A DNA stretch of 64,000 nt from a virus (IMGVR_UViG_3300005748_000132:20180-84179), one strand, 5' to 3'. Positions 6,101 to 64,000 are shown, counted from the stretch's first letter. A program made the numbers and translations. Notes: generated by a model not told the origin, from the sequence alone.

Positions 6101-7833
6101 GTTCTATAATGGTCTCATATTCAACACCTAATCAGTTATTTAGAAGACAATACCCTTTACAATCTAAGTGGGTGAGAGTAAGATATGAAAATGGTTTAGC
6201 TGCTCAATCTACGTTTAATTTGACATCTTCTTTTTTGATAACAGATCCCGGACTAGTTACACAAGAAGTTCAGGTGATTCCAGAAAATAACAATTTGGCA
6301 GGTTTAAACAGGTCTATACAGACCATTAGAAATGCTTCAGGTACAGGCTTTCAAGATGTGCCAGTTAGAACTGATACAGGTAATCCTAAACATTCAATAG
6401 AAGAAATTCATGATGATGTACTACTTAAACCTCTTACCCAACCTAAGTTCACTCAAGTAAGTGTAGGTAATACTCCAGTAAGGTTAGATACATCTCCTCT
6501 ATCAGATAGGAGAGCTACTATAATTAAGAATAGTGGTTCTTTCTCGTGTGCTGTAGGTACGAGTAATACTATAACTTATAACTCAGAAAGTTATAGATTA
6601 CCTCCTGAAAGTCACGTAGTACTTCCTTTTAGTGAAGACGTAGAATATTGGGGAGTTGCTCAAGATACAGGAGGTACTCAAACCCTCTTAACAAGAAGTG
6701 GAGCTTCTACTTCAGGTACAGTAACTACTCCTAATAACGCATTAACTAGTAACGGTTCTAGAGCTATTATGGACGCTACTGGAGAGACTTTAGAAGTATC
6801 AGGTTTTACAGCAGGTACTACTAATGATATATTATCCGTTACCTTAGGTGCTGAAATGCGTAAAGAAGCTGGTCAGTTTGAAACAGCAGCTTGGGTAGAT
6901 ACTGTCGGTCAAGATGTAGGAAACGTAGGAAGTATCACTTCTCCTACAGTCACAGCTAATGAAGATCATTTATATATAGTTTCAGTTTCGACTAACGAAC
7001 CGGGTACTACTGTTACAGGTATTTCTAATACTATGGGATTTGATGAATATACTATAGCCGATATAGGTGATATCTTAGTAGGAGATTCAAATACAGCAGG
7101 TGGGGATAGTGCTGAATCTAGAACTCATATGTTCAGAATGACAGGTACTCCAACTTCAAACGGTACTATTACAGTAACCTTCTCAGAGACAGCAGGTCAC
7201 GCGGTAATCGCAGTTACTAGAATTTCAGGAGCAGATCTAGCAGACCCTATAGATTCGATAGATGTAGATAATGATAACAATCAAACTAACTACTCAGGAA
7301 CTTTAACTTCAGCGACCAACGGAGGATTGTATATCGGTGCTTTCGGTTCGGAGATTGAAACTCATCAAACAGCCACTACTCCTACAGGTGCAATAGAAAG
7401 GTTCCAAGATGGTTCGACTACAAATAACAATCAGACTCAAGCTATTGTAACTGCTAGTATAACAAGCACAGGTTCCTTAGGGTACTCAGGTTCTTATTCA
7501 GGAGGTAATGATATCTCTTATGTCGTAGCAGCAATTAAACCATCAGAGGCAAATAACCCTATAGTTAATCTAAATTACGAACTAAGTGCGATAGCTGGAA
7601 CTACTTCTCAATCTTATGAGCTTACAAATACTTCAGATACTAATTACGAATTAGATATATCATCAGATAGAGCTTGGGTGTTTTCAGACATAGCTAATAT
7701 TACTGTCATTTTAGACGGAAGTTCTATATCAGCCGCAGCAGCAGAGATTGATTATGTATATATTGAAATAATAGATTCTACAGGTAATGTTACAATAGTC
7801 TGTTTAATTCAAGGCGGAGAAGAGTTATTATGA
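3178..7833 (+). CDS. giant fibre/structural protein (1551 aa) with repeated domains
   Basis: Long uninterrupted ORF. Three paralogous ~130-aa segments each end in …Y/R-x-NG-[VIL]-[TA]-AQ-[ST]-x-F-[EN]-L (aa ~470-520, ~600-690, ~960-1020). Repeated AEFDETQV/SEFDETQV/HDETQ motifs. T/S/N/G-rich. Confidence 0.55.
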   Translation: MSYNKKNGKLDFRNVKMTQFDSSQTNRMEFSELQSAKRTLPTNTILKDAYTHFRQTLDGDNRPTKVDYYQALDSTIDKLTFRADSGGDLAGTYYILTNNLDGKTYAIYQVVSGSGSAPGVADVEIAATYNNNDSATLVAFANKQALANITDIRITYSGILSDFVEIEYLQFGDTPVIDLGTTGFTVSRTKEGESYLVTSVELEYDSDGNIIWQEELLKNAVYDPYTASFNFPTKAAITDENGNPYGPDNPLSVQLSDGSVNIGTVNAELEVQLSHLDNDPDAGDIHDSVRIGDGVEELAINTDSEALVHDQDTHDKLDILNTSVNDQSDETQTILQAEFDETQVAIINNTNTLENTLEQIDDNLDAEFQTTRDLLQSEFDETQVNQDEQLAETQGFRSDMNNQHDETQNKLDQLITNFTDVVDFNNTTTTPLGAGATFTGIGTDILGYAQININYYADQDADADGIEFQFSHNNVDWFKGTPEYNYQTGQYRTFQLGIYGRYFRVVYTNGVTAQSEISIETLLLTKISHVSVHRVDSSITDDRSVQVVKSINTARQPDGDYINAKADGIAVDIDNNSIKTSSPLGVSGIYESGWIDSDGYKSIEISIQSDVASDIDGIVVEFTDDANATTPTVISTQTFTFSVKDVEAGQLTLYLPPRLDGYRIRYINGIAAQTTFELESTLRTASVQPISLPIASPIVDSTNAEVIRTVLAGNKVDSNLEPTEFYGNAEVTSNNSLKTQSVHEVIFKYATPDDPSLPSGVGITVDPVLNPEPNVIDSGWIAVREFKTQDFHILSNQSVKVFLLNASDSLGNNIQGGNEPNLVTISDSPASVAARFFDDYFRVIICNESGSSVTEITARSTGGNGTIQPVDISIDQPVFGFFPAPLTQNVSKGKNPDDVYEALRIQGQHSPNTTSTLLNGNTGGTDHIFTGEWFEWEKNYIKLSLALKSDQSGTVYVDFSQEDSPTNGDNSSVDSSIMVSYSTPNQLFRRQYPLQSKWVRVRYENGLAAQSTFNLTSSFLITDPGLVTQEVQVIPENNNLAGLNRSIQTIRNASGTGFQDVPVRTDTGNPKHSIEEIHDDVLLKPLTQPKFTQVSVGNTPVRLDTSPLSDRRATIIKNSGSFSCAVGTSNTITYNSESYRLPPESHVVLPFSEDVEYWGVAQDTGGTQTLLTRSGASTSGTVTTPNNALTSNGSRAIMDATGETLEVSGFTAGTTNDILSVTLGAEMRKEAGQFETAAWVDTVGQDVGNVGSITSPTVTANEDHLYIVSVSTNEPGTTVTGISNTMGFDEYTIADIGDILVGDSNTAGGDSAESRTHMFRMTGTPTSNGTITVTFSETAGHAVIAVTRISGADLADPIDSIDVDNDNNQTNYSGTLTSATNGGLYIGAFGSEIETHQTATTPTGAIERFQDGSTTNNNQTQAIVTASITSTGSLGYSGSYSGGNDISYVVAAIKPSEANNPIVNLNYELSAIAGTTSQSYELTNTSDTNYELDISSDRAWVFSDIANITVILDGSSISAAAAEIDYVYIEIIDSTGNVTIVCLIQGGEELL

Positions 7834-8264
7834 TACGTTACTTCAGTGGAGGACAAGGGGTTGACCCTACTAAATATGTAACTTTAGTTTACGCAGAAGC
7901 TCAAGCTACAGCTAATACGACTACTAGTTCAGGAACTCCTTCTTTGTTGAATGGTATGACTTTGACCCCTTTAGAAGGTGTTTATCAAGTATGGTTTAGT
8001 GCTTCAAATGAAAACACAGGAGCTGGTTTATTTAATACTCCAGAGGAGACTATATTTCAAGTGTATGTAGATGGAGTAGCTGTAGGGCACAGTAGAAGGG
8101 AAAATACAGCAGGTGATGGAGGTAGAAGTAGAGGAGTAGCTATTAATTGTAGAGTTGAAGTAGATGGAACTCAAGATGTAGAAGTTAGATGGTCAGTGAC
8201 AGGTGGTACAGCTACTTGTTTTGAAAGAACTTTATCAGTATTCAAACTAGCGGATTCAACATGA
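7830..8264 (+). CDS. hypothetical virion protein (144 aa)
   Basis: ATGA stop/start overlap with the upstream giant gene; beta-rich. Confidence 0.45.
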   Translation: MIRYFSGGQGVDPTKYVTLVYAEAQATANTTTSSGTPSLLNGMTLTPLEGVYQVWFSASNENTGAGLFNTPEETIFQVYVDGVAVGHSRRENTAGDGGRSRGVAINCRVEVDGTQDVEVRWSVTGGTATCFERTLSVFKLADST

Positions 8265-8605
8265 TATTACAATGGAAAGAGTATGTTATAAACTTAAGTC
8301 TTTTTGATGAATGGTTACGAGAAAACCAACCAAAAACAGATGGGTTAGTAGCTACAAAAGACGAACTTACTGTGGTGGAAATCGAAGCATTAACTCCAGA
8401 AGAAGTGCAACAAATACAAGCTTATTATGATCAGTTGGATGAGCATGTTACAACTTACACAGAAAATGAACTGAGATTAGCAGTTACTGAAAAAAAACAA
8501 GAAATATTAATTAAAGATATTACAACACTAACTCAAGTAGAAAAAAAGATACTACTTAATATGGAATTAACAGAACAAGAGAAACACGACTTAGTAAATG
8601 AATAA
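8261..8605 (+). CDS. hypothetical protein (114 aa)
   Basis: ATGA overlap coupling; acidic helical protein. Confidence 0.4.
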   Translation: MILQWKEYVINLSLFDEWLRENQPKTDGLVATKDELTVVEIEALTPEEVQQIQAYYDQLDEHVTTYTENELRLAVTEKKQEILIKDITTLTQVEKKILLNMELTEQEKHDLVNE

Positions 8606-8613
8606 GGGATAAC

Positions 8614-9108
8614 ATGAGTGATTTAATGAAAAAAAGAAAAGAAGAACGTATAAGAAAAGAACTTGAGAGAAGAGCTGCTGGAGACAAATCCGTAAATCTA
8701 GCTAAAGGAGTATTGGACAAAGATATGTTAAAGGTTACTAATTTAAACAATACTCCAGATCCGAACGAGATTGTATATAAAGATAAAATACCTAATAAGA
8801 TCAACACTAAAGTACCTACAACAAAAGTACAAAGTGGTTCAGAGTGGGCTGAAAAAATAGCTAAGAAATTAGGTAGAGGTGCTAAAATGCTTCCTGTAGT
8901 AGGAGCTTTAGCTTCATTAGCTATGAATCCTGACGATGCTGCGGCAGCTATACCAGTTCTAGATAGTGCTGATAGTGTCGGAATGTCACCTTCAGATGAA
9001 GATCAAATGCTTGCCGAAACCGACGCTAGAATGAATTATGAAGATTCTCAAGCAGCTAAGGATAGATTAGCAGCATTGGCTAAGTTATCGAAATTAAAAG
9101 GTCAGTAG
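8614..9108 (+). CDS. hypothetical protein, basic N-terminus (164 aa)
   Basis: SD aagggataacATG; K/R-rich N-terminus and Ala-rich C-terminus. Confidence 0.45.
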   Translation: MSDLMKKRKEERIRKELERRAAGDKSVNLAKGVLDKDMLKVTNLNNTPDPNEIVYKDKIPNKINTKVPTTKVQSGSEWAEKIAKKLGRGAKMLPVVGALASLAMNPDDAAAAIPVLDSADSVGMSPSDEDQMLAETDARMNYEDSQAAKDRLAALAKLSKLKGQ

Positions 9109-9132
9109 TAAATAATACCAATATAGAACCTT

Positions 9133-9151
9133 TATATTGACAACTATATAT
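9133..9151 (+). promoter_or_regulatory. conserved 19-bp element TATATTGACAACTATATAT (copy 1), putative promoter
   Basis: Identical 19-mer recurs at 15032..15050. It contains a TTGACA -35 consensus. A TAAAAT lies 15 bp downstream. It sits 23 nt upstream of the ATG at 9175 in a 66-nt intergenic gap. Confidence 0.4.
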
Positions 9152-9174
9152 AGGAACTAAAATAGAGGTGTATA

Positions 9175-9387
9175 ATGAAAGATAAACTCAAAAGTAAACT
9201 AAGAGCTTTAAAAATGCTTGCAGAAGACGCTGAAGGGTGTATGGCTTCACCAGAAGAGATGGTAGGAGCAGAAGCTCCGGTTAAAGCTACTATTATGGCT
9301 GACTCGGAAGAAGGCTTGAAAGAAGCTGCTGAGAAACTTCCTGAAATTCTCAAAAAGAGTAAAAAATTACGTAAAAATCTTAAATAA
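9175..9387 (+). CDS. small hypothetical protein (70 aa)
   Basis: Strong SD GAGGTG 6 nt upstream; helical, K/E-rich. Confidence 0.45.
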   Translation: MKDKLKSKLRALKMLAEDAEGCMASPEEMVGAEAPVKATIMADSEEGLKEAAEKLPEILKKSKKLRKNLK

Positions 9388-9401
9388 TATTTGGAGGAAC
9401 A

Positions 9402-10370
9402 ATGCCTAGAGTATTAACTGGCGATCAACTTATTAAATCCGTCAGGAAGCGTACTACTGTACCTGATGACACTAGTTCCTTCACTGATACAGATATTTTA
9501 GAAACAATTGACGAGGAGCTTAATGTACAGGTTTTACCAACCCTATTGAAGCTTCACGCTGAACACTTAGTAGTTACTGTAGATGTCCCTAGAAACGCAT
9601 CTGGAACTTATGAGATACCTTATAGAGCCGTTGGTAATACTGTTAGAGACGTGTCGTTAATAAATGGTTCAAATACCTATGAATTAGCTCAGGTTAGTGT
9701 CGGAGCTTTACCTGATTATTCTAATCAAGTCAATACATCACAAGAACTTGACCTGTTTTATGTTGAGAGTAATAAAATTAAACTAGTTACTCCTAGCGTA
9801 GACTATAATTCTATTAGAATAAAATATCATCTAAGACCTAATTTTTTAACTAAAGTTGATAAAGCTGGTATTATTGACAGTATTGTCGCTGATACTGACG
9901 CTGATACACTAACTTTAACGCTATCTCAAGTAGGTAAAAACTTTAATGAGAATTGTTGTTACGACCTTGTTGGTGCTAGAACTCCTAATAAAATAAAAAA
10001 CTTTGATCTTACTCCAGATTCTTTGACAATTAGTAGCGTCGGAGGGACGGGTACAATAGTTTTCACCTTGTCTGACGTAGAAGATTACGCAGATCTTATA
10101 GTTGGAGATTATGTGACTATTGCTGAAGAAACTCCAGTACCAAACATACCTACAGAAATGCACCCTGTTTTAGCTCAGGGGGCAGCTATACAAGTTTTAG
10201 ATAGTTTGGGTGATTTTGAAGCCTTAGCTAGAGCAGAAAAAAGAATGATGGAAATGTCAGCAGCAACTCAAGGCTTAGTAGACGATAGAGTGGAACTTGC
10301 TCCAAAGAAGATACGACCTAGAAATGGTACGTTACAATCTAGGAGAGGAAGATATAGAGGAAATCGCTAA
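9402..10370 (+). CDS. virion structural protein (322 aa)
   Basis: SD GGAGGAACAATG; sits directly ahead of the 1403-aa structural gene with an ATGG/TAATG junction. Confidence 0.45.
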   Translation: MPRVLTGDQLIKSVRKRTTVPDDTSSFTDTDILETIDEELNVQVLPTLLKLHAEHLVVTVDVPRNASGTYEIPYRAVGNTVRDVSLINGSNTYELAQVSVGALPDYSNQVNTSQELDLFYVESNKIKLVTPSVDYNSIRIKYHLRPNFLTKVDKAGIIDSIVADTDADTLTLTLSQVGKNFNENCCYDLVGARTPNKIKNFDLTPDSLTISSVGGTGTIVFTLSDVEDYADLIVGDYVTIAEETPVPNIPTEMHPVLAQGAAIQVLDSLGDFEALARAEKRMMEMSAATQGLVDDRVELAPKKIRPRNGTLQSRRGRYRGNR

Positions 10371-13300
10371 TGGCTAGTAATATAATAAAGTGCCAAGGAC
10401 TTGTAACTTATGGAAATGAGTTATCCAGACCATCTGGTTCACTAAAACAAGGAACTAATATAAATGTTGACGAAGACGGAGTTATCTCTCCTCGTAGAGG
10501 TTTTAATGATTATAACAATCCTACTAACAATGTAGAAAGTTCTGCTACTAATTTTGTATCTCAGATCATGGAATACAAAGAAGCTATTATCAGACAATAC
10601 ATGAGTAGTTTAGAATATGAAGATGTTAACGGAACTTTTCAAGCTGTTAACGGAACTTTTGAACAAGTAGAAAGTGGTTTTAGAACAAAGTGGCAAGAAG
10701 CTAATTCTAACTTATACTTTACTTCAGCAGACGGTATTAAAAAGATATCCGAAAAAGCTAGAGCTAACCTTAGTGCAAATATGGTAAGTAATGCAGGTGG
10801 TTTAAAAGCTGGTTATGCTGATGGAGTAGTTGTCCCTACTGTCGGAGGATTTTTACCTCCTAGTTCTAAAGTAGGTTATAGAGTTTTGTACGGAACTAAA
10901 GACAATAATAATAACCTTATTTACGGCTCTCCTAGTGCTAGATTTGTAGTAACTAACTTTTCTGAAGACGTACAAACTTATGAAATATCCACAATTACTT
11001 TTTCTACTACGTTTAGTACTGATGAAGTATCTAACGGTGACCATTTTGTTTATGAAAATAATACTGCAAAATATACGATTTACTTCGATGTAGATGGTTC
11101 TTCTACAGAACCTAAGACAGCTCAGACTATCGGATCAACTTATGTTAAAGTTGAAATACCTACTTCAGTAGCTAGTGCAAACCCTGCTGAAAATGACACT
11201 ATAGCTGCTATTACAGCTAACGTACTTGCTAACTCTTTAGGTGACACTACAGTTACTTTAGATGGTTCCGATACTGTGGTATTAACAAGCACTCAAGAAG
11301 ATGATATTGTTGGACTTTCTAACCCTGCTTACGCTGCTGACGGAACTACAGACATATCAACAAGAATATCTACAACTAATACTGTCGATGGTGACACTAC
11401 GATAGGTTCTAGTGCTACAGTTTCTGTTACAGGGGTTGTACCTGCTGAAGCTACTGTTGATTACTTTTACCAAGTATATAGAACTGGTGTTATTTCAACT
11501 TCTACAGGACTTACTTTGAATGATATTGACCCCGGTGACGAAATGAACATCGTCTACGAAGCAGGTCTAACTCAAGCTGAAATTGACGCAGGTGAGTTCA
11601 CATTTACCGACACTACTCCAGAATCTTTCAGAGCTGAAGGACTTCCTTTATATACTAACGCTGTTACAGGAGAAGGTATCTTGCAATCAAACGAGACTCC
11701 TCCTATAGCTTTAGACATTGAACTATTTAGAAACTACATGTTCTACGCTAATACTAAGCAACGTCATAAGCTAGAGTTTACAATTGTTTCTGTTGACGAC
11801 TTTATTTCAGACTCTACTAGAATCATAGTTGGAAATTCTGACATTACAAGATTTTATACTTTTGTAGGAGAAGCTGAAGTCACTGACCTTACTATTGATA
11901 GTATACCTACTGCTGGTGATTATATTAACTTATATTCCGCTAACGACTCTAGGCAATATTATATATATTTCGGAGATACTGGAAATGACCCCGAAGTAGC
12001 TGGAGCTATAGGCTATAGAGTTTCTTTAACTGGCTATACTCCCGATGACGCTACTCTTTCAGAACTACAAGCAATATCTTTGGATATAGAGTCAGCTCTA
12101 GTTGACAACGTAGACTTTGACTTATCAGTTTCTTCCAACACTATAACTTTTACAAATACAAATAACGGAACCTCTACAGACATGAATATTGGAGCTGACA
12201 CAGGAGCTTCCTCATTTACGATATTGGTAACTACTCAAGGAGACGGAGAAGAGTTCGCTACAGACGAAGGTGGAGACGTACTTCTCTCAGGGTTAGTTTC
12301 AGTAGGTCAATCTATTGACGAAACAGCTAGAAGTTTAGTTAAAGTTATTTCTAAAGACCCTTTATCTCCAGTTAACGCTTACTATTTAAGTACTGGTGAA
12401 GATCTTCCCGGTAACATATTACTAGAAGCTAGAAGTTTAGAAGATGAAACATTTTACATAGCTGTTGAGTCTGGTTATGATGAATATGACAATGGGACAG
12501 CTTATGTGAAAGGTGATTACGTGAGCTATTTAGGACTTGATTATGTAGCGAAAACAAGTACTACAGGCAATCTCCCGACAGATACTAACTTTTGGACTCA
12601 GTTTTCTATAGGAGGAGAATTTACTCCAGAGTTACCTGTTTCTAATACTATTATAAGTTATACAGGAACTGGGGCTTTAACTCAAATTGAAAGAACTTCT
12701 CACGGTTATATCACAGGCGATCAAGTATTTGTTGGAGTTGTTGAAAATGATTACGACGGAACAGTAACTTATTTAGCAGCTACTCCTGATAAGGTAGCTT
12801 TTAATGGTAATGTGTACGAGTGTATTCTTGACACTACAGGAATAGATAATGGCTCAGAAGACCCTAGTGGCGATACCTCTGATAACACTTATTGGCAATA
12901 TATTTCTCCTGAGTTTTCTGGAGTATACGAAATAACGTATATTGACGATGATAACTTTAGTATCGAGGTTGTTAGTCCTTCTAGTACAGTAGCTTTTGAA
13001 CCTACTTTCTCGACAATATTTAGTCCTGATGTAGAATCTGATAACGAAGAACTTGGTAATAGAATATATTTTTCTAAAAGAAATGAACCTGAAGCTGTTC
13101 CAGTTATAAACTTTATTGACGTCGGTACTAGAGACGATGAAATAAGAAGAATACTTGCTCTAAGAGATGAGCTTTATATCTTTAAAGAAGACGGTATTTT
13201 TGTACTATCTGGTACTTCAGCTCCTGACCAATTTGGTAACGGAGGCTTTTCTGTAAGACTTATTGATAACACTAGGATATTAGCTGCTGACTCTGCTGTA

Positions 13301-17084: not shown

Positions 17085-18850
17085 TGGGTGGAAAATCACA
17101 AGACCCTAACAAAGCGGCAATGAAGTTTCAAAAAGAGCAAATGAAGAGGTTAGAAGGTATAGACCTTCCTGAGCTTCAAGAGTATATTCTACAAAATCCT
17201 GAGTTAGTTGGTTTATTAGAAGCTGAACAACTTGGAGACTCAGCTTTAGAAGAAATCTCACTAGACCCTCAACTTAGAGAGCAGCAGTTAGCAGCTTTAG
17301 AAAACTTAAAAGAATACGCTGATACAGGTCTTACCGAAACTGATAAATACGCTATGGAGCAGATGTTAGGTGATGTAGCATCTCAAGAACAAGCTAGTCA
17401 AGCAGCTATTGAAGATAAGATGGCTCGTCAAGGAATGGACTCTTCTGGAGCAGCTTTAATGGCTAAAATGCAAGCTCGTCAAGAAGGAGCTAATAGAGGT
17501 AGAGAACAAGCTATGCAAATGGCTTCTCAGGGTCAACAAAATAGAATGGCAGCTTTGAACCAATTAGCAGGTCAGTCAGGTCAGATGCAACAAGCTGATT
17601 ACTCAAGACAGGCTCAGACAGCTTCCGCTAGGGATGCTATCGCTAGAGCTAATGCGGCTAATAGACAAAATGTAAATGCTCAGAATTTAGCAGCAAGACA
17701 AGCTATAGAAAACCAAAGAGCTAATATTTCTAATCTACAAGCTCAAGTGGGTAATCAAATAAATCAACAAAACTTTCAAAATCAATTATCTAGAGCTACT
17801 GGACAAGGTAGTACTGCGAACGCTATGAGTAATATAGCAGGTAATGCTCAACAAGGACCATCGGGTTTACAAACTATAGGTACTATCGGTGGAGGTATTG
17901 TAGGAGGTATTTATGGTGGACCAGCAGGAGCAGCAGCAGGTGCTTCAGCAGGAGGAGCTATAGGAGGAGCCTTATCAGCAGAGGACGGTGGAGTGATTAA
18001 AAAATATGCCGACCCTAAATCAGTTCATTATAATAATAAAAATACACCGATTTTCAACGAAAATTACTATAAAATGATATCTGGTGAAAATGATGTAGAT
18101 CAAACTATTGAAGCTTCTGGAGGTAAAAGATTAGGTATAGATAACGATATGACTTCAGCAGAAGTTCAAACCAATCAGGACGCTAAACAAGCTTTAGGTA
18201 ATCAGGATCAAGGAATGTCAGCTCAGGATATGACAAAAGCTCTAGGGGCTTTGAACTCTATAATGGGTAAAAAAGAAGGTGAATCTAAACCTAGGTTAAA
18301 ATTAGGTCAGTTTTCAATGTCACAACCTGAGAATGTTATGAATCCTGTCGGACCTCAAAACTTCGCTAATCCTTACGCTGCTGCTGATGGAGGTATACCA
18401 AAAGAGTTACAATCTCCTGATAGAGAAGCTGAAGTAAATAGAATGTTAGGTAAACCAGAAGATAATAAACTTATGATGACTGACTCTTATGAAAATGGAG
18501 GGGTTCCTGAGTATGCTTGCGGTGGTACTCATAATAAGCCTGAGTTTGCTTCAGGTGGGATCGGAGAAATAGTTGATAGTGGTATGGACTCTTACGCTGG
18601 CGACCGCATAGACGCTAAAATAAACGATGGAGAGATGATATTAAATGTACCTCAACAACAGAGACTTATGGACGTTCTTAGAGGCGAAGAATCGCTTGAC
18701 AATCTAGGAGATTCTGATATAATAGAAGGAGTTCCTAGTGACTATAGAGACGAGCTTCATGAAATGTCAGAAGAATCAGATGAAGAAAACGAAAGTAGTA
18801 AAAGAGTTAAGGGACTTAAAGCTCTCTTAGAAGCTTTAGGAGACGAATAA
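17084..18850 (+). CDS. internal virion/ejection-like protein with Q-rich and Gly-zipper regions (588 aa)
   Basis: Gln/Ala-rich helical region; glycine-rich stretch GGGIVGGIYGGPAGAAAGASAGGAIGGAL; ATGG start overlapping the upstream stop. Confidence 0.45.
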   Translation: MGGKSQDPNKAAMKFQKEQMKRLEGIDLPELQEYILQNPELVGLLEAEQLGDSALEEISLDPQLREQQLAALENLKEYADTGLTETDKYAMEQMLGDVASQEQASQAAIEDKMARQGMDSSGAALMAKMQARQEGANRGREQAMQMASQGQQNRMAALNQLAGQSGQMQQADYSRQAQTASARDAIARANAANRQNVNAQNLAARQAIENQRANISNLQAQVGNQINQQNFQNQLSRATGQGSTANAMSNIAGNAQQGPSGLQTIGTIGGGIVGGIYGGPAGAAAGASAGGAIGGALSAEDGGVIKKYADPKSVHYNNKNTPIFNENYYKMISGENDVDQTIEASGGKRLGIDNDMTSAEVQTNQDAKQALGNQDQGMSAQDMTKALGALNSIMGKKEGESKPRLKLGQFSMSQPENVMNPVGPQNFANPYAAADGGIPKELQSPDREAEVNRMLGKPEDNKLMMTDSYENGGVPEYACGGTHNKPEFASGGIGEIVDSGMDSYAGDRIDAKINDGEMILNVPQQQRLMDVLRGEESLDNLGDSDIIEGVPSDYRDELHEMSEESDEENESSKRVKGLKALLEALGDE

Positions 18851-48158: not shown

Positions 48159-48560
48159 CTATATCTCCTTCATTTGCTCTACATACTTTTCATAGTACTT
48201 GTTGACACAGTCATCAGAAGTTGAGTAACTGCTCATAAAATTATTATAGCACACTCCTTCCTTTGTGTCAATATGGTCTGCTGATTTTACGCAATGGGCT
48301 ATTTCATGGGCTATAAGTATTATCTTATCCTTTTCAGAAAGCTTGTACCAGAACTTCAGGTTAATCCCAACTCTACCTAGTCCTTCAAAGCAGAAACCTA
48401 GTTCTTGGTTGTCAAGTCTGTAAAAGTTGTAGTCAAGGTTTTTACCGTCTAAGTTACCTTCAGATATCTCGTAGACTTCTTTTACATAAGGTTCGATATC
48501 TTTCGGTATGAAGGAGGTTAGCAAGGGTAGGAATAGTAGTGTCACGATTAGTGGTATCAT
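48159..48560 (-). CDS. exported/membrane HExxH zinc-metallopeptidase-like protein (133 aa)
   Basis: N-terminal hydrophobic signal/anchor; LIAHEIAHCV motif. Confidence 0.45.
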   Translation of the reverse strand: MIPLIVTLLFLPLLTSFIPKDIEPYVKEVYEISEGNLDGKNLDYNFYRLDNQELGFCFEGLGRVGINLKFWYKLSEKDKIILIAHEIAHCVKSADHIDTKEGVCYNNFMSSYSTSDDCVNKYYEKYVEQMKEI

Positions 48561-50522: not shown

Positions 50523-50992
50523 TCATCCTCCATATCAGGGTCATACACGTAAACATCTAAATCGTCACCTGTAGCGTCGTCGATAATTCGCGACACTATT
50601 TCCCAGTTACCACCAGCTAGTCCACAACCTATTTTAGGTATTGCTACTTCTTTTTTACCTAAGTTTTTAAGTTCTTCAAATACATTGTATATAGCATCGT
50701 AACTTACATATTTCTCACCGTCGTAACCGTATTTTTCTTGAGTATAGCAATTTAATACAACCTTTCCATTTTCTTGAGGTGACTGGGTACAATAACCTAA
50801 GCGGTCAGACTTTCTTGGAAAAAACTCACTATCCTGTACATACCAATAATGGTAGTCTTCTTTTACTTTCGGATACTTAGTAAACAAAACCTTAGCTACT
50901 CCGCTACCCATTCTATTCTGACAATTCACACCGTGAGCTATGTATTTTTGTTCAGCGTTTAGTATAGAGTCTTTTATATACTTAACTATCAC
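50519..50992 (-). CDS. Macro-domain protein (ADP-ribose-binding/processing)
   Basis: YIAHGVNCQNRMGSGVAKVL and VAIPKIGCGLAGGNWEIVSRII match macro-domain binding loops; overlaps the Nampt-like gene by 11 nt. Confidence 0.6.
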   Translation of the reverse strand: MIVKYIKDSILNAEQKYIAHGVNCQNRMGSGVAKVLFTKYPKVKEDYHYWYVQDSEFFPRKSDRLGYCTQSPQENGKVVLNCYTQEKYGYDGEKYVSYDAIYNVFEELKNLGKKEVAIPKIGCGLAGGNWEIVSRIIDDATGDDLDVYVYDPDMEDE

Positions 50993-52472
50993 TTAATCTT
51001 CCTCTGATTTCACTTAACGAAGTTTCTTTTAAAAATTTACCATCTTTGTAAATAGTTTGTAGAAGGTCTGGAGCATGAGACCTTCTAGGATTATTATCAT
51101 CAAAAACTTCTAGTTCATCTCCGACCAATGACCTAACTACCTGTACTCTACCTTTAGCTGACTTCTTAGTTCCGTCGTCAGTAATGGGGTCTTTGAAGAT
51201 GGCTCTCTCTTGTCCGTTTACCGTAACACTTGTAGCTTTCATTGCAAAACCTAAACTATCTCTTGTGATCATTTGGTAAGTGTAGCTTCCAATCCCTAAC
51301 ACTACGTTAGTTGAAGCAAATCCTTTAGCTTTAAGTCTTTCAACAATTTCCTTAGTTCTTCCAATAGTTATAGAGTCACCATAAATAGCTCCTACTTTTG
51401 GATTTAACACCTTGTAACCTTTTTCTGTTACCGTACCTCCGAAAGTATCATAGAGCATTTCTACGACCCCTTTTTGTGCTCTAGGGTCACTATTATTTGG
51501 GTCACCACATAGAATATCTACAGGGTTTCCAGAATCAGGTCGAATAACTACCTTATCAGGAGCTTCAGGGACTCCTCCATCTCTAGCTAAGATAGAGTCT
51601 TTTAAGCTAGGGATAATATTTTCCATTACGTTCCATAAGTCCCAAGTATCCGACACTATAGAAACAATTCCTGTAGGATATAAGTCTTCAATAAACCTTC
51701 TATATGTTTCTCGTTCACTTTCTTTTTCTCCAGCACACATTACCGAATGTTCAGAAGCTGGTACAGAACAAGCCACTAACTCTTTAGTGACATCAGCGTT
51801 ATAATATTGTTCAGCATATTGTACAGCAGGTAGAGTATCACTTCCTACAAAGCTTAAAATATGACCTAATCCACTCCTAGCTGCATCTTCTGGACCGCTC
51901 ATTCCGCGCATTGAAAAGTCGTGCCCTTGGAACTCTACTCCCATTATCGAACCAGTAGTCTCGATAGCAGCTTCATCTAGTATCTTTCTATATTCTCTAG
52001 CAATACTAGCAGTAGTACAAGGTTTCCATAATAGAGCTGACATAATTGTTTCTAAGTAGTTTGTTAGCCAGAAGAACTCATCTTTAGTATTTTCTACTGT
52101 AAACATTGGTACTCTGAAAGGGACTAAAGTACCTTCTTCTAAAGCTTTAACTTCAATCGGAAGATGACCTAAATCATGTAAATCTTCTAAATGTTTTGTG
52201 TAGACGTTAGGATTGAATAAATAAGCAGCTACTTGTCTCTTATACTCCGACACTATTTCTTCTTTAGGTCTTGAGAAAAACTGTTTATCAAAAAGCTCAG
52301 TGATTTCTTTTAAAGCTCCTTGAAAACCAAAAGCTACTACTTCTTTTACTTGAGGAAGATGTTTTCCTGATCTTGGGGTCCATGTAGAGTACACCTTTTC
52401 AGTACCTTCAGGGTATTGTACTCTGTGACTCAGCTTATAACCGTCTGCTGCCAATGTTGCTAATAAGTTCAT
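50982..52472 (-). CDS. nicotinamide phosphoribosyltransferase-like protein (NadV/Nampt family; candidate Namat of NARP1)
   Basis: N-terminus NLLATLAADGYKLSHRVQYPEGTEKVYS matches the Nampt/NadV signature; 496 aa; start overlaps the Prs-like stop (ATGA). Confidence 0.85.
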   Translation of the reverse strand: MNLLATLAADGYKLSHRVQYPEGTEKVYSTWTPRSGKHLPQVKEVVAFGFQGALKEITELFDKQFFSRPKEEIVSEYKRQVAAYLFNPNVYTKHLEDLHDLGHLPIEVKALEEGTLVPFRVPMFTVENTKDEFFWLTNYLETIMSALLWKPCTTASIAREYRKILDEAAIETTGSIMGVEFQGHDFSMRGMSGPEDAARSGLGHILSFVGSDTLPAVQYAEQYYNADVTKELVACSVPASEHSVMCAGEKESERETYRRFIEDLYPTGIVSIVSDTWDLWNVMENIIPSLKDSILARDGGVPEAPDKVVIRPDSGNPVDILCGDPNNSDPRAQKGVVEMLYDTFGGTVTEKGYKVLNPKVGAIYGDSITIGRTKEIVERLKAKGFASTNVVLGIGSYTYQMITRDSLGFAMKATSVTVNGQERAIFKDPITDDGTKKSAKGRVQVVRSLVGDELEVFDDNNPRRSHAPDLLQTIYKDGKFLKETSLSEIRGRLSDS

Positions 52473-53242
52473 ACTTCTCCTTTTCTATTAAATATTCTAT
52501 TAATTCCCGATTCTCTTAATGTGTCTACTCCCTTTGAGTATATTCCGTGAGTTGTGTATAGATTAACCTCTTTTGCTCCCAAAGTCAAGAGTTTTTCTGC
52601 TGCTAATTTAAAAGTCATACCTCCGTCACATAAGTCATCTACAATAAGAATAACCTCTCCTTCGATACTAATAAGTTCGTTCAGAAATAAGTTTTTTATA
52701 TAACCTGTACTTTGATCTCTATCTTTTGATAAGCTACAACTAGGAAGACTGTTCAGAAAAGGATAACTCTTATATCTTTTCTCAGCACCTTTGTCTGGGT
52801 AGCATATTAGTGTAGGATTTGTTTCTAAAGCACCGAGTATCGCACTTGCTGGAAATATCGAACTTATAATACCCTGACTAAATTCCTTACTATGTTCATC
52901 ATAAGTAGCTATACTTTTTATAGAAGGTAGAGTCTTTAAAAGTTTCATAAAAGTATATTTTGCAAAAGTTGTTTGGTTAGAAACTCTCTTATCTTGTCTT
53001 GCATAAGGTAGTGTGTCTATGAACAAACAATCTACCATCAATCCTCTACTTTGTAATAAGTCACATAGTTGAGCTAAATGAATAAACTCTGATTCATTTT
53101 CAAAGTCCCAAATTATATCCTGCTCCAAAACTTCCCTTCTTGTGAAAACTTCTTCTGGTATCTTCCAAACCTGACTTGTCCCATCAGGGAAAATAGTTGG
53201 TTTTATCTCGTAACCGTTTAACTTAATCATCTTATCTCCCAT
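52469..53242 (-). CDS. ribose-phosphate pyrophosphokinase-like protein (Prs family; candidate ADPR pyrophosphokinase Adps of NARP1)
   Basis: FIDTLPYARQDKR (PRPP-synthetase P-Y-x-R-Q-D-R) and ILIVDDLCDGGMT (PRPP-binding loop). The probable start is the second ATG at 53230, which has a GGGAGAT SD. Confidence 0.8.
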   Translation of the reverse strand: MGDKMIKLNGYEIKPTIFPDGTSQVWKIPEEVFTRREVLEQDIIWDFENESEFIHLAQLCDLLQSRGLMVDCLFIDTLPYARQDKRVSNQTTFAKYTFMKLLKTLPSIKSIATYDEHSKEFSQGIISSIFPASAILGALETNPTLICYPDKGAEKRYKSYPFLNSLPSCSLSKDRDQSTGYIKNLFLNELISIEGEVILIVDDLCDGGMTFKLAAEKLLTLGAKEVNLYTTHGIYSKGVDTLRESGINRIFNRKGEV

Positions 53243-56057: not shown

Positions 56058-56360
56058 TTATTCCTCCATTCCGATTGCTTTCAATTTCTTTTCTCGAAGC
56101 TCTTTTGTTAAATGCTTCAACTCGTTCATTATAGCAGCTTTTTCTACAATGTCAATAACTTTTCTATCAAACATCTCTTTGTTGGTGCACTCTACTCTGT
56201 AAACACCTTGCTCTCTTTTTTGGAAGGTCTTTATACAACCGTTGTCGTACCTTTCTTCGCACACTACTTGCGCTCTTGTTATAGCGTCGTAGTCTTGTTG
56301 GTTAAATGGTATCGTGCTGATATTTAGTAACCCTATCGCTACACAAGCTAGTTTCATCAT
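56058..56360 (-). CDS. exported protein (100 aa)
   Basis: Signal-peptide-like N-terminus MMKLACVAIGLLNISTIPF; 4 Cys. Confidence 0.4.
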   Translation of the reverse strand: MMKLACVAIGLLNISTIPFNQQDYDAITRAQVVCEERYDNGCIKTFQKREQGVYRVECTNKEMFDRKVIDIVEKAAIMNELKHLTKELREKKLKAIGMEE

Positions 56361-60719: not shown

Positions 60720-60758
60720 ATCTGCTCCTTTGTTACTTATATTATACCAGTTCTAACG

Positions 60759-61052
60759 CTATGTGTCAAGCTCTTTTTTGCCAAAACAATTTAAAAACTT
60801 TTTATGTTCGTCGTCAAGTTTCACACCTAAGTCACTTATCTTTAAATTGTAGTTAGTCTCGAAGTCAAGAAAGCTTTGTAGATGCTCCTCAAAGTCTTTA
60901 ACAGCTTCTTCTTTTTCTACAGGAAGATAGTTTTTACCTTCGATTATATCTAGCAAGTCTTGAGTTTCCTTGTAACCGTAGAACTTTTCCATGTCTATAA
61001 ATGGGTAGTCGTATAGTGTCGATAAAACGTCGTCTAATTCATTAATCGTCAT
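60759..61052 (-). CDS. hypothetical acidic protein (97 aa)
   Basis: ORF. Confidence 0.35.
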   Translation of the reverse strand: MTINELDDVLSTLYDYPFIDMEKFYGYKETQDLLDIIEGKNYLPVEKEEAVKDFEEHLQSFLDFETNYNLKISDLGVKLDDEHKKFLNCFGKKELDT

Positions 61053-61437: not shown

Positions 61438-62052
61438 TTAATTATAATAACCAATCCCTAGACCATTTTCTATAGCATCTTGAAAAATCTCTTTGTACCT
61501 AGTTTTTCTTTCTTCATGAGTTATGAAAAAAACTCGAAAGTTACTACTCAAAACTATAGCTAAACTTAGTATTTCTTTTTGATGCGTTTCGTTAACGTGT
61601 TTAAAGTCGAAGAATATTTTCTTATCTATTTTAGAAGCTTCTATTTCAAAAAGCAAGTCTCTTAGCAAGTCAAGTCCTAAATCGTAACTATTATTTTTAG
61701 AAACTACTTTTCCTTTGTAGGTTTTGTCATGGTTTAAGACTATATCGTCTTTTGCCGACACTATATCAAATTCTACTATCTTGAAACACTCATGGTTTTC
61801 GTAGTCTAATATTCCTAAGAAACCTTTTATTGTATTGTCTTCAAACTCTCTTAAGTCTCCGCCTATTCTATGACCTATGTTAACTATGCAATTACCATTT
61901 TCATCAAGCAAGTTATCTTTTATAGATGGTTGGTACTCTTCTACTGGTTTACCACAACTTATTAAAATTAGCAATAATAAAAATTTCATATTGTCCTTTA
62001 TGCATTGTGTCAACTTGTTTAAAAAAGAGGCGAACTTAATCGCCTCAAACAC
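61438..62052 (-). CDS. glycerophosphodiester phosphodiesterase (GDPD)-like lipoprotein
   Basis: Lipobox LILISCGK; NIGHRIGG (H-R-G catalytic motif); EFDIVSAKDDIVLNHD (E-x-D…HD). Confidence 0.5.
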   Translation of the reverse strand: MFEAIKFASFLNKLTQCIKDNMKFLLLLILISCGKPVEEYQPSIKDNLLDENGNCIVNIGHRIGGDLREFEDNTIKGFLGILDYENHECFKIVEFDIVSAKDDIVLNHDKTYKGKVVSKNNSYDLGLDLLRDLLFEIEASKIDKKIFFDFKHVNETHQKEILSLAIVLSSNFRVFFITHEERKTRYKEIFQDAIENGLGIGYYN

Positions 62053-62061
62053 AAGGAGTAA

Positions 62062-62694
62062 TTAGTCAACTTCGCAAGAAGTCGCTACACTTAGTCTATG
62101 TAAGATGTGACCTAATAATCTACTCTCACAAACTATTTCTAAATCTTCGACACTATTAGTCAGGTCTATAATATCATTTTCAAGTTGGTTAATTTGTACA
62201 ATAGTTTCATTGATCGAAACAGTGTTAGCGTTGTCACCTTCCTCAATCATTTGCTCCAACCTAGCTACTTCAATAGCTAACTCGGTATGGGCTTTCTGTA
62301 CAGCATTGTTAATAGCTTGTGAAAGCTCCGTATTTACCCTAGAAAGCTCTCTAGAAAGCTCTCCTATACTCAGAGTAGTGCTATTAAAAGAAGCTCTCAT
62401 TTCGTCTCTTAGAGCGTCAATTTGAGCTTGTAAATCAGCTAAGTCTGTCTCTAACTCGTCTACCCTTTCATCAGTGTCTTCTTTTGTACCTAAGATATCG
62501 TTACCAATGTGCCTAGGAAGCTGTCCGAACCCTTCAATAACTTGACCTATGTTTTCTACTCCGTTGTGGAGTTCTCTATCTACAGTTTGTTTAGCGTTTG
62601 TTAACTCTCTGTCAACGTCTTGCTTGATTTGAGTAAGTTCCTTACCGCAGGATACTAGAGTTAATAGTGTTGTAATTGTTAATAATTTTTTCAT
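62062..62694 (-). CDS. coiled-coil lipoprotein (210 aa)
   Basis: Lipobox LTLVSCGK; long heptad-repeat helices. Confidence 0.5.
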   Translation of the reverse strand: MKKLLTITTLLTLVSCGKELTQIKQDVDRELTNAKQTVDRELHNGVENIGQVIEGFGQLPRHIGNDILGTKEDTDERVDELETDLADLQAQIDALRDEMRASFNSTTLSIGELSRELSRVNTELSQAINNAVQKAHTELAIEVARLEQMIEEGDNANTVSINETIVQINQLENDIIDLTNSVEDLEIVCESRLLGHILHRLSVATSCEVD

Positions 62695-62707: not shown

Positions 62708-63340
62708 TTAGTTGTTAAATTGTGCTTTGAAAGCTTCGTAACTTTCTTTACTTATTTCTATTTCTTTACCGTCAATTATGATGGTCTTAGTTTGCTTAAA
62801 AACTATTCCAGTAGTTTCCTCTAGTATCTTAGCGTCGAAATTAGGTACACTTTCTAAAAACTCTCTGTCTTCTTTTGTAACTTCCTTACCGTTATAAGTT
62901 GACTTGTTTACTTTTAAATAACCTCCTGTAGTTTTGTAAGTAGGGTTATCAATTTTCTCTTGTTCTGTCATTTTATTTTCATATACCCATTCACATAATA
63001 GTTTTTGATATTTGTATATAATACTTCTAAATTTATTGTGATTTTCTCCATGAAACTCCCAACCACTGTCTTTATTAAATAGTCTAACAGTAGGTATATT
63101 AGTGTTACAGTCACCTGTGTTATAGTCACCTGTGTTACGGCTACCTGTGTTATAGTGACCTGTGTTAAAGTCACCTGTGTTATAGTTACCTGTGTTATAG
63201 TGACCTGTGTTACAGTGACCTGTGTTGGAGCTACCTGTGTTACGGTTACCTGTGTTATAGTCACCTGTGTTACAGTAACCTGTGTTATAGTAACCTGTGT
63301 TAAAGTCACCTGTGTTATAGTAACCTGTGTTAGTTGACAT
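62708..63340 (-). CDS. pentapeptide-like tandem-repeat protein (NTG-x-x)x16 plus C-terminal globular domain
   Basis: N-terminal 80 aa is (N-T-G-[YDHNS]-[YFCRS]) x ~16, encoded by the 15-nt tandem repeat at ~63102..63333; C-terminal ~130 aa is non-repetitive. Confidence 0.55.
   Translation of the reverse strand: MSTNTGYYNTGDFNTGYYNTGYCNTGDYNTGNRNTGSSNTGHCNTGHYNTGNYNTGDFNTGHYNTGSRNTGDYNTGDCNTNIPTVRLFNKDSGWEFHGENHNKFRSIIYKYQKLLCEWVYENKMTEQEKIDNPTYKTTGGYLKVNKSTYNGKEVTKEDREFLESVPNFDAKILEETTGIVFKQTKTIIIDGKEIEISKESYEAFKAQFNN
63102..63333 (-). repeat. 15-nt tandem DNA repeat (~15 units, consensus on top strand N-ACCTGTGTTA-N-AG-N) inside CDS
   Basis: Read directly from the sequence. Confidence 0.9.
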
Positions 63341-63350
63341 ATTTACTCCT

Positions 63351-63611
63351 TTATTGAATAACGCTTTCTACCATATTAGTAAGCATGAATTTATCTTTAT
63401 CGTGCATATTTACTGACTCTATAGCTTTTAACAAGTCCTCTTTATTATAACCTGTTTCAACTTCGTTGTCAACTTCTTTTAGTTCAAGCTTCCAATTATA
63501 TTCGTCTAAAACTCCGATTCTAGTACAGCTTATAACCTTGAAAACTTCACTTGTCTCGTTGTCTTTTATTATTGTTCCAGTTTTGTAAAATTGTTTTGAT
63601 TTAGTTTGCAT
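63351..63611 (-). CDS. hypothetical protein (86 aa)
   Basis: ORF. Confidence 0.35.
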   Translation of the reverse strand: MQTKSKQFYKTGTIIKDNETSEVFKVISCTRIGVLDEYNWKLELKEVDNEVETGYNKEDLLKAIESVNMHDKDKFMLTNMVESVIQ

Positions 63612-63618
63612 ATTACTC

Positions 63619-64000
63619 CTATAAGTCTCTTAATATTTTTTCTAAAGCTATTTCTATCATACTTTTTATTAACGGTATATCTTCGTTGTTGTTATACTCA
63701 CTGTCACTAAAAACAGTATCTAATTGATCAATAGTATAGTCTCTACAACCTATATGAATACTAGAGTAGGTTACAGTAATAGGGTATTGAAAACCTAGTA
63801 TGTTAAAATAGTGACTAGTTTTTGAAATTTCGTCAAAATCTCGCACCCTAGCATTACCATACACCCTAGCATTATCATACACCCTAGCATTATCATACAC
63901 CTCAGCATTACCATACACCCTAGCATTACCAGACACCTCAGCATTACCATACACCCAAGCATTACCAGACACCCAAGCATTACCAGACACCCAAGCATTA
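63619..64000 (-). CDS. hexapeptide-repeat (G/D-N-A-x-V-x) protein, 5' partial at window edge
   Basis: N-terminal GNAWVSGNAWVYGNAEVSGNARVYGNAEVYDNARVYDNARVYGNARV encoded by an 18-nt tandem repeat (~63847..64000+). The repeat reaches the window end, so the true N-terminus is probably outside the window. Confidence 0.5.
   Translation of the reverse strand, partial: NAWVSGNAWVSGNAWVYGNAEVSGNARVYGNAEVYDNARVYDNARVYGNARVRDFDEISKTSHYFNILGFQYPITVTYSSIHIGCRDYTIDQLDTVFSDSEYNNNEDIPLIKSMIEIALEKILRDL
63847..64000 (-). repeat. 18-nt tandem DNA repeat (top-strand unit CCTAGCATTACCATACAC and variants), >=8 units, continues past window end
   Basis: Read directly. Confidence 0.9.

Follow-up and report, generated by a model that had tools for sequence, protein, structure and literature searches.

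The locus encodes a tandem-repeat protein with a non-repetitive C-terminal domain

The window is the whole stretch of viral DNA that was analyzed, 64,000 nt in length (IMGVR_UViG_3300005748_000132:20180-84179). On its minus strand, a complete gene with an ATG start (62708..63340) encodes a protein of 210 aa, here called the NTGxx gene product, which was recognized in the ORF listing and by its match to a phage orthologous group (PHROG 14105). Its translation consists of M-S-T, 15 perfect N-T-G-x-x units, a degenerate 16th unit (NTNIP), and then a non-repetitive part of 130 aa. The perfect units (residues 4-78, 63107..63331) were evident from Tandem Repeats Finder, the unit table and the match to Pfam family PF01469, and they are encoded by 15-nt repeats of the form AAC ACA GGT NRC YNT. 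Tandem Repeats Finder placed the array at 63102-63332 (15.4 copies, 84% matches, score 301) and detected no indels. The initial annotation had described a repeat protein with a five-residue period followed by a non-repetitive domain, which is confirmed by the ORF, the repeat analysis and the translation; it had also counted 16 units, of which 15 are perfect but the last is degenerate. That last unit (63092..63106), seen in the translation, opens the junction NT-x-x-P-T-V-R-L-F-N-K, which is conserved in alignments A1, A2, and A3, and T80 and F88 are invariant in A1. Residues 84-210 (62711..63091) make up a non-repetitive domain that is predicted to be of the alpha/beta type.

The start codon is preceded by a ribosome-binding region (63341..63352, minus strand) with the Shine-Dalgarno-like AAAGGAG 5 nt before the ATG, as read from the sequence and the ORF coordinates, and about 100 nt upstream of the start codon lies a perfect sigma-70 consensus, TTGACA-17-TATAAT (63444..63472, minus strand, 12/12 positions). 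Gaps to the adjoining genes are 10 nt and 13 nt, the former extending to the stop codon of an upstream ORF of 86 aa. The NTGxx gene product has no signal peptide or hydrophobic segment, and its GRAVY value is -1.10. Two off-frame ORFs overlie the array (62968..63309 on the minus strand and 63155..63337 on the plus strand), and their VTQ… and VTCV… repeats are by-products of the tandem repeat.

A second repeat gene lies two positions upstream (63619-64000, minus strand) and runs off the end of the window. It contains an 18-nt array (63844-64000) that encodes GNAxVx hexapeptide repeats matching the YdcK beta-solenoid repeat (PF18836) and PHROGs 7964 and 5070, neither of which has an assigned function. 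Its codons follow the pattern GGT AAT GCT nnn GTG nnn, which resembles that of the NTG array in that variation falls mainly at codon positions 1-2 of the x residues; the exceptions are two units with G/D at their first residue and a last unit that diverges. Genes with GNAxVx repeats were present upstream of family members at 2 of 59 other loci. A likeness of its C-terminal part to that of a canonical pentapeptide-repeat (PF00805) protein of the Rheinheimera barba phages was considered and rejected (BLASTP E = 32).

Lipoprotein-like signals (…LVSCG and …LISCG) open the products of the two genes directly downstream (62062-62694 and 61438-62052, minus strand), of which the first is a long coiled coil with only weak, non-specific family matches. 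The two genes may encode envelope lipoproteins, for example for superinfection exclusion. Farther along the same strand, a nicotinamide phosphoribosyltransferase gene (NAMPT, PHROG 448, E = 5e-199; 50982-52472) overlaps by 4 nt the gene for a 257-aa protein (52469-53242) with a phosphoribosyltransferase/PRPP-synthetase-like motif (…LIVDDLCDGGMTF…). By these matches the two are assigned as a phage NAD-salvage pair, which is of interest with regard to NAD-depleting defenses.

The protein belongs to a widespread phage and prophage family

The NTGxx reading frame is real, since the non-repetitive part alone retrieved 83 homologues from 5.8 billion proteins and the protein matches PHROG 14105 ('unknown function', E = 1.8e-42) over residues 9-185, a span that takes in both the array and the C-terminal domain. 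Most of the 83 homologues are fused to PF01469 arrays, some are stand-alone, and three are fused to DUF7666 (PF24703). Among 1.84 billion cluster representatives, each standing for a cluster at 50% identity, at least 1,342 were matched at E <= 1e-3 by a repeat-free profile built from the family (A3), which recovers the window ORF with E = 2.9e-58 in hmmsearch. In most of the 150 best of these 1,342, the match falls at the C-terminus or close to it, while a few have C-terminal extensions or tandem duplications. Among the best 142 of the 1,342, Pentapeptide_2 was found in 89, DUF7666 in 34, YopX in one, and no other Pfam family was detected.

Domain content thus compiled points to a full family architecture of DUF7666, a Pentapeptide_2 array, and a conserved 'KTTGGYLK / LPNFD' domain, of which the window copy has the latter two. 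DUF7666 is absent from the window protein and from all six frames of the window, and no second copy of the family was found there. All family motifs are present in the window protein (M-T-x-x-E-K, K-T-T-G-G-Y-L-K, L-P-N-F-D, and T-G-I), which is a short, DUF7666-less member. Cultured examples with all three parts include a 315-aa protein of Clostridioides phage AR1086-1 and, in the Rheinheimera barba phages, proteins of 325-330 aa that are annotated 'pentapeptide'. A nucleotide search with the 61-64 kb portion of the window against 50,697 phage records gave no match, so relatives are reachable at the protein level only.

A relative was found on at least 485 viral contigs. Some phages have 2-5 paralogues and several contigs carry two; in one case (L103, IMGVR_UViG_3300045988_170967, 5269-12315), five paralogues with Pentapeptide_2 and the C-terminal domain stand in tandem. 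In bacterial genomes the family occurs mainly in prophages of Firmicutes. The best match to the C-terminal domain in the genome collection, with 44% identity, was on a 12.5-kb contig of a Promethearchaeota MAG (L008, JABXKB010000114.1, 6020-6391); this contig, although binned to an Asgard archaeal genome, is probably a mis-binned viral contig. Our literature search found nothing on the phage family and no paper mentioning DUF7666, and the barba phage genomics paper is silent on the gene. The NTGxx gene product can therefore be classed, by homology, as an additional member of a known, uncharacterized phage and prophage family, which ranges from prophages of gut Firmicutes to marine gammaproteobacterial myoviruses and is among the larger phage early protein families so far without a function.

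The C-terminal domain is modeled with confidence and the array is not

AlphaFold2 with a 46-sequence alignment gave pLDDT values of 31-40 for residues 1-80, 74 for the junction, and mostly 81-97 for the remainder, and the C-terminal domain modeled alone reached a mean pLDDT of 91.7. The models thus indicate that the latter is a compact alpha/beta domain without a recognizable structural or sequence relative of known function. No structural neighbor of the model was found, no Pfam or NCBIfam model matched the domain, and nothing meaningful came from searching the PDB by sequence with the full protein or the C-terminal profile. Its conserved motifs are W-x5-M-T-x-x-E-K-x-x-N-P-T-Y-K-T-T-G-G-Y-L-K and L-P-N-F-D-A-x-I-x-x-E-x-T-G-I, which in the window protein are followed by an optional tail of a beta-hairpin and a helix (IIIDGKEIEISKESYEAFK). 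Being confidently modeled and without a structural neighbor, the domain is a good target for structure determination.

Structure prediction had been proposed as a check of whether the repeat forms a solenoid, and its outcome was mixed: beta strands were hinted at, but no confident fold was obtained. In the low-confidence model, DSSP assigned strands of three residues (x2-N-T) every five residues, a pattern that hints at a beta-rich repeat. Coil size could not be read from the units, as the xx residues showed no period of 3 or 4 units and unit numbers favored no modulus; the sole periodicity detected in xx had a lag of 2 and involved the second residue (z = 9).

These observations bear on the possibility that the array is a disordered, low-complexity region of the sticker-and-spacer kind, in which an aromatic residue or arginine every five residues in a matrix of N, T, and G would give a flexible linker or promote self-association, condensate formation, or amyloid-like assembly, leaving the C-terminal domain as the sole folded part. 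The low pLDDT over residues 1-80 would fit such a region, as would a composition rich in N, G, T, and Y with Y/R/W/F dominating at x2, and unit numbers that vary freely with no coil-size periodicity. However, low pLDDT is weak evidence for disorder, because AlphaFold2 often fails on short perfect repeats with a shallow or mis-registered alignment. N, T, and G are also strictly conserved despite codon change between lineages, which is rare for disordered spacers, and the junction between the array and the C-terminal domain is itself conserved. We therefore regard a disordered array as unlikely, if worth keeping in mind.

The array matches Pentapeptide_2 rather than the Qnr/MfpA family

In hmmscan the array matched PF01469 (Pentapeptide_2) in two stretches, with E = 8.7e-23 and a score of 80.4 bits, well over the curated gathering cutoff of 26.4. 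The unit of this family, x-N-x-G-x in long tandem runs, is what the 15 perfect N-T-G-x-x units display. No match to PF00805, the family of Qnr and MfpA, was obtained for the window protein in the Pfam hmmscan at E <= 1. The assignment to pentapeptide-repeat proteins in the initial annotation thus stands as far as the five-residue period and PF01469 are concerned, but not in its extension to Qnr/MfpA. A PPE domain was likewise not found in the Pfam scan of the window protein, and the surrounding genome is that of a tailed phage.

If the protein were Qnr/MfpA-like, its repeat would be a right-handed quadrilateral beta-helix mimicking B-DNA, and it would inhibit restriction, defense, or DNA-binding enzymes. 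Besides the period of five, a shifted register of the array, G-[D/N]-[Y/W/F/C/R]-N-T, may loosely parallel the canonical A-[D/N]-[L/F]-X-X, where a small residue (i-2) and D/N (i-1) precede a bulky residue (i). The gene is early and in one relative adjoins a gene with a weak S-AdoMet lyase match, and in the Barba phages a canonical PF00805 gene lies about 700 nt downstream of the family member. These canonical genes, with ADLRG/ANLSG units, are Barba30A gp043 (L007, 2815-3327) and Barba18A gp043 (L104, 3312-3929). Against such a relationship, comparison of family alignment A1 with Barba30A gp043 in hhalign gave a probability of 0.1%, a negative outcome for the profile comparison with pentapeptide-repeat families that had been suggested as a check. 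The would-be core position is arginine in 18% of units. The charge pattern expected of a DNA mimic is likewise not supported, as the array is only mildly acidic, with a net charge of -3.3 over 80 residues and a pI of 5.1 (whole protein, pI 5.8). With PF00805 unmatched, an hhalign probability this low, and such mild acidity, the DNA-mimic reading is unsupported. On these comparisons we do not consider the NTGxx gene product a Qnr/MfpA-type DNA mimic and give that alternative little credence; 'pentapeptide' labels on such phage genes should not be taken to imply Qnr/MfpA-like DNA mimicry.

The gene lies at the promoter-proximal end of an early block

The tailed-phage genome in the window carries a gene for a virion structural protein at 0-1.2 kb of the plus strand, followed by large uncharacterized ORFs to 24 kb. 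Genes for RNR, an exonuclease, DNA polymerase, NAMPT, and recombination functions occupy the minus strand, and the NTGxx gene sits at the 5' (promoter-proximal) end of this long block. The closest relatives of the DNA polymerase, at 46-48% identity, are those of Vibrio phage 1.084.O, Nitrincola phage 1M3-16, and the barba phages. Five perfect TTGACA-N16-18-TATAAT sites were found in the window (18696-18723 on the plus strand; 48243-48271, 56128-56155, 60741-60769, and 63444-63472 on the minus strand), compared with 0.05 expected from shuffled sequences, and the four on the minus strand lie inside the early/replication block. This excess suggests transcription by the host RNA polymerase in a host with canonical sigma-70 promoters, and we infer that the site at 63444-63472 works as the promoter of the NTGxx gene.

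A comparable position was seen at other members of the family. In 19 of 59 non-redundant family loci, an S24/CI-type repressor gene is located upstream, and SNF2 helicase, VRR-NUC, and HD-domain genes are located downstream in 16-17 of the 59, so that in those prophages the family gene lies at the start of the early operon. Gene order thus indicates that the family gene occupies the promoter-proximal end of early or replication operons. Across the 59 loci, no conserved partner gene pointing to a specific pathway emerged.

Expression data are available for a distant homologue, Barba18A gp041, which was verified as a family member and has in common with the window family DUF7666, the array, and only the distal half of the C-terminal domain. 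In the first two of the three parts of Table S2 of the barba transcriptome study (PMC9305737), its average log cpm at the first time point was 15.0 in high-nutrient and 15.7 in low-nutrient medium, which placed it 4th-5th of the 128 phage genes in these parts; later it fell to about 12.5 and 12.1, respectively. In the same parts of the table, the canonical PF00805 gene of this phage was early too, but far lower (log cpm 11.0 vs 15.0), and structural genes peaked last (PMC9305737).

This timing weighs against a virion, surface, or receptor-binding module in which a solenoid fiber would contact the host surface through its variable residues. Those residues are of the exposed, binding type, as would be required of such a module, but the barba homologue peaks when structural genes do not, and the gene in the window belongs to the early minus-strand block, separated by about 39 kb from where the plus-strand block with the window's one recognized virion structural protein ends. 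Prophage copies sit between the CI/Cro switch and the replication genes, and the protein is small and lacks a signal peptide. A role in the virion is accordingly very improbable.

The array evolves in concert while two residues per unit vary

The nine bases encoding N-T-G are identical in all units of the window array (AACACAGGT in 15/15), and variation is confined to bases 10, 11, 13, and 14, plus one change at base 15. Other lineages use other 9-mers: AACACTGGT in L003, AATACTGGT in Barba19A (25/25 units), and mostly AATACAGGA in the C. difficile phage. Across 54 distinct arrays, the dominant 9-mer of an array accounted for a median of 94% of its units, and diversity at the synonymous third base of the N, T, and G codons was 0.10-0.18 within arrays compared with 0.44-0.74 between them. 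Within arrays, diversity peaked at the first base of each xx codon (0.55 at base 10 and 0.51 at base 13). Uniformity within arrays and difference between lineages indicate that the array evolves in concert, through gain and loss of units together with homogenization, while diversity persists almost exclusively in the first two codon positions of the xx residues.

The number and order of units also change between closely related genes. Barba isolates whose flanking domains are essentially identical, apart from a single N-terminal domain substitution, differ at several xx positions and in unit number (26 or 27). P0002, the relative closest to the window protein, is 87% identical in the C-terminal domain and has 18 units in a different order, compared with 15 in the window; members of alignment A1 have 8-19 units, with one outlier of 3. 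Such differences between isolates and close relatives bear out the early suspicion that the repeat is a hotspot for copy-number variation.

Family-wide, the first residue of the unit is N in 76% or S in 23%, the second is T in 80%, and the third is G in 95%. At x1, D (31%), N (29%), Y (11%), H (11%), and S (5%) predominate, and at x2, Y (26%), R (18%), C (15%), W (15%), F (7%), and H (5%). Because N/S, T, and G are conserved across lineages that use different codons, a structural role for these residues is likely. The pattern is that of purifying selection on N, T, and G with amino-acid diversity maintained at xx; the non-synonymous excess in a single array is statistically indecisive alone, and this reading rests on the family-wide pattern. 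Instead of a binding surface, the restricted sets at x1 and x2 could reflect structural constraint, with turn-formers favored at x1 and stacking residues at x2. A diversity-generating retroelement as the source of variation was rejected by inspection, since the adenines of the invariant AAC and ACA codons are never varied.

It is hardly credible that the array acts mainly at the DNA level, as iterons, an origin, or a protein-binding array with an incidental reading frame: its near-identical direct repeats with a perfectly conserved 9-mer lie close to replication and recombination genes, but that 9-mer changes between lineages while the N-T-G peptide stays, the array is in frame with the conserved C-terminal domain in every array-bearing homologue examined, and variation avoids stop codons and is restricted to two codons.

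A probably cytoplasmic protein that may act early on a host component

The NTGxx gene product is most likely a cytoplasmic early host-interaction protein, as suggested by the lack of export signals, the position of the gene, and the pattern of variation. In the specific form that we favor, with moderate confidence, it is a cytoplasmic, early-expressed phage protein, a short-form member of its family, that would act on a host component. The array would fold as a beta-rich, solenoid-like rod in which N, T, and G are structural, forming Asn/Thr ladders and Gly turns, and the xx pair (x1 mostly D/N/H/Y/S, x2 mostly Y/R/C/W/F/H) would present a rapidly changing surface of the binding type. The conserved C-terminal domain may then be a constant effector or docking module. 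The host component would be acted on early in infection, in host take-over or counter-defense, and such early action would account for the arms-race-like evolution of the array.

An anti-restriction or anti-defense role had been raised from the sequence at the outset, and the context of the gene is compatible with an early or anti-defense role in the phage. At E <= 0.01, neither the window protein nor any of three homologues matched a PADLOC model, which tells little about counter-defense because PADLOC contains models of defense systems and not of anti-defense systems. What marks the protein as a candidate host-interaction or counter-defense factor is an array that is uniform in its DNA and variable at exactly two residues per unit, along with the change in copy number between isolates, the tandem paralogues, and the very high early transcript of a distant homologue.

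A more specific possibility, which we consider improbable, takes the array as a miniature modular binder. By analogy with the repeat-variable diresidues of TALE proteins or with PUF repeats, a narrow beta-solenoid would carry a two-residue code per five-residue unit, recognize a repetitive or polymeric host target such as a nucleic acid, a filament, or a defense sensor, and be reprogrammed quickly by the shuffling of units. In that case a widespread counter-defense or take-over system would have the C-terminal domain and DUF7666 as its constant effector modules.

Comparison with known systems

The nearest known relatives are the PHROG 14105 proteins of AR1086-1 (WMU95219.1) and Barba18A (gp041, QCQ61745.1), which have the type of array, the junction after it, and the C-terminal domain in common with the window protein, as well as the location in an early region. 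The protein of the C. difficile phage AR1086-1 matched the C-terminal profile with E = 1.2e-31, and the barba homologue matched in its distal LPNFD...GI half only (E = 1.9e-8). Compared with these long-form relatives, the window protein lacks the N-terminal DUF7666 of about 95 aa, and it has the C-terminal hairpin-helix tail that is missing from many members.

Pentapeptide-repeat proteins of the PF00805 type, such as Qnr, MfpA, and AlbG, are DNA mimics that fold as an Rfr quadrilateral beta-helix with four pentapeptides per coil. They have the five-residue periodicity in common with the NTGxx gene product and possibly a loose likeness of register (G-[DN]-[aromatic]-N-T vs A-[DN]-L-X-X). In contrast, the NTGxx array is without HMM or profile similarity to them, its central position is not hydrophobic, its acidity is weak, and its models include no confident Rfr-like fold.

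Among PF01469 proteins, the MPTR repeats of mycobacterial PPE proteins have the x-N-x-G-x period of five in common with the NTGxx array. In the MPTR motif NxGxGNxG the fifth residue is mostly Gly, whereas in the phage array it is Y/R/C/W/F/H. The NTGxx gene product also lacks the PPE N-terminal domain, its context is neither mycobacterial nor ESX-related, and the phage proteins bring their own C-terminal domain and often DUF7666. Our search of the PDB and the literature found no solved structure for phage Pentapeptide_2 proteins or for PPE-MPTR. Length variation through repeat number has been reported for PPE-MPTR genes (PMC10591178).

Short-period triangular beta-helices are formed by the beta-helical antifreeze proteins of insects and bacteria and by bactofilin. 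The NTGxx array has no sequence relation to these proteins and its model is of low confidence, and the biology of its gene product would be cytoplasmic and phage-early.

The closest likeness in evolutionary pattern is to the TAL effectors, whose near-identical tandem units of 33-36 residues differ at a hypervariable residue pair. NTGxx units are likewise identical in DNA save for the codons of two adjacent residues, as is also the case when they are set beside PUF/PPR repeats, and the array evolves in concert with a varying number of units. The NTGxx unit is only five residues long and shows no homology to the TALE repeat; a reading of one unit per monomer of a target would go beyond the likeness, which is an analogy in mode of evolution, with a uniform repeat carrying a changing pair of residues.
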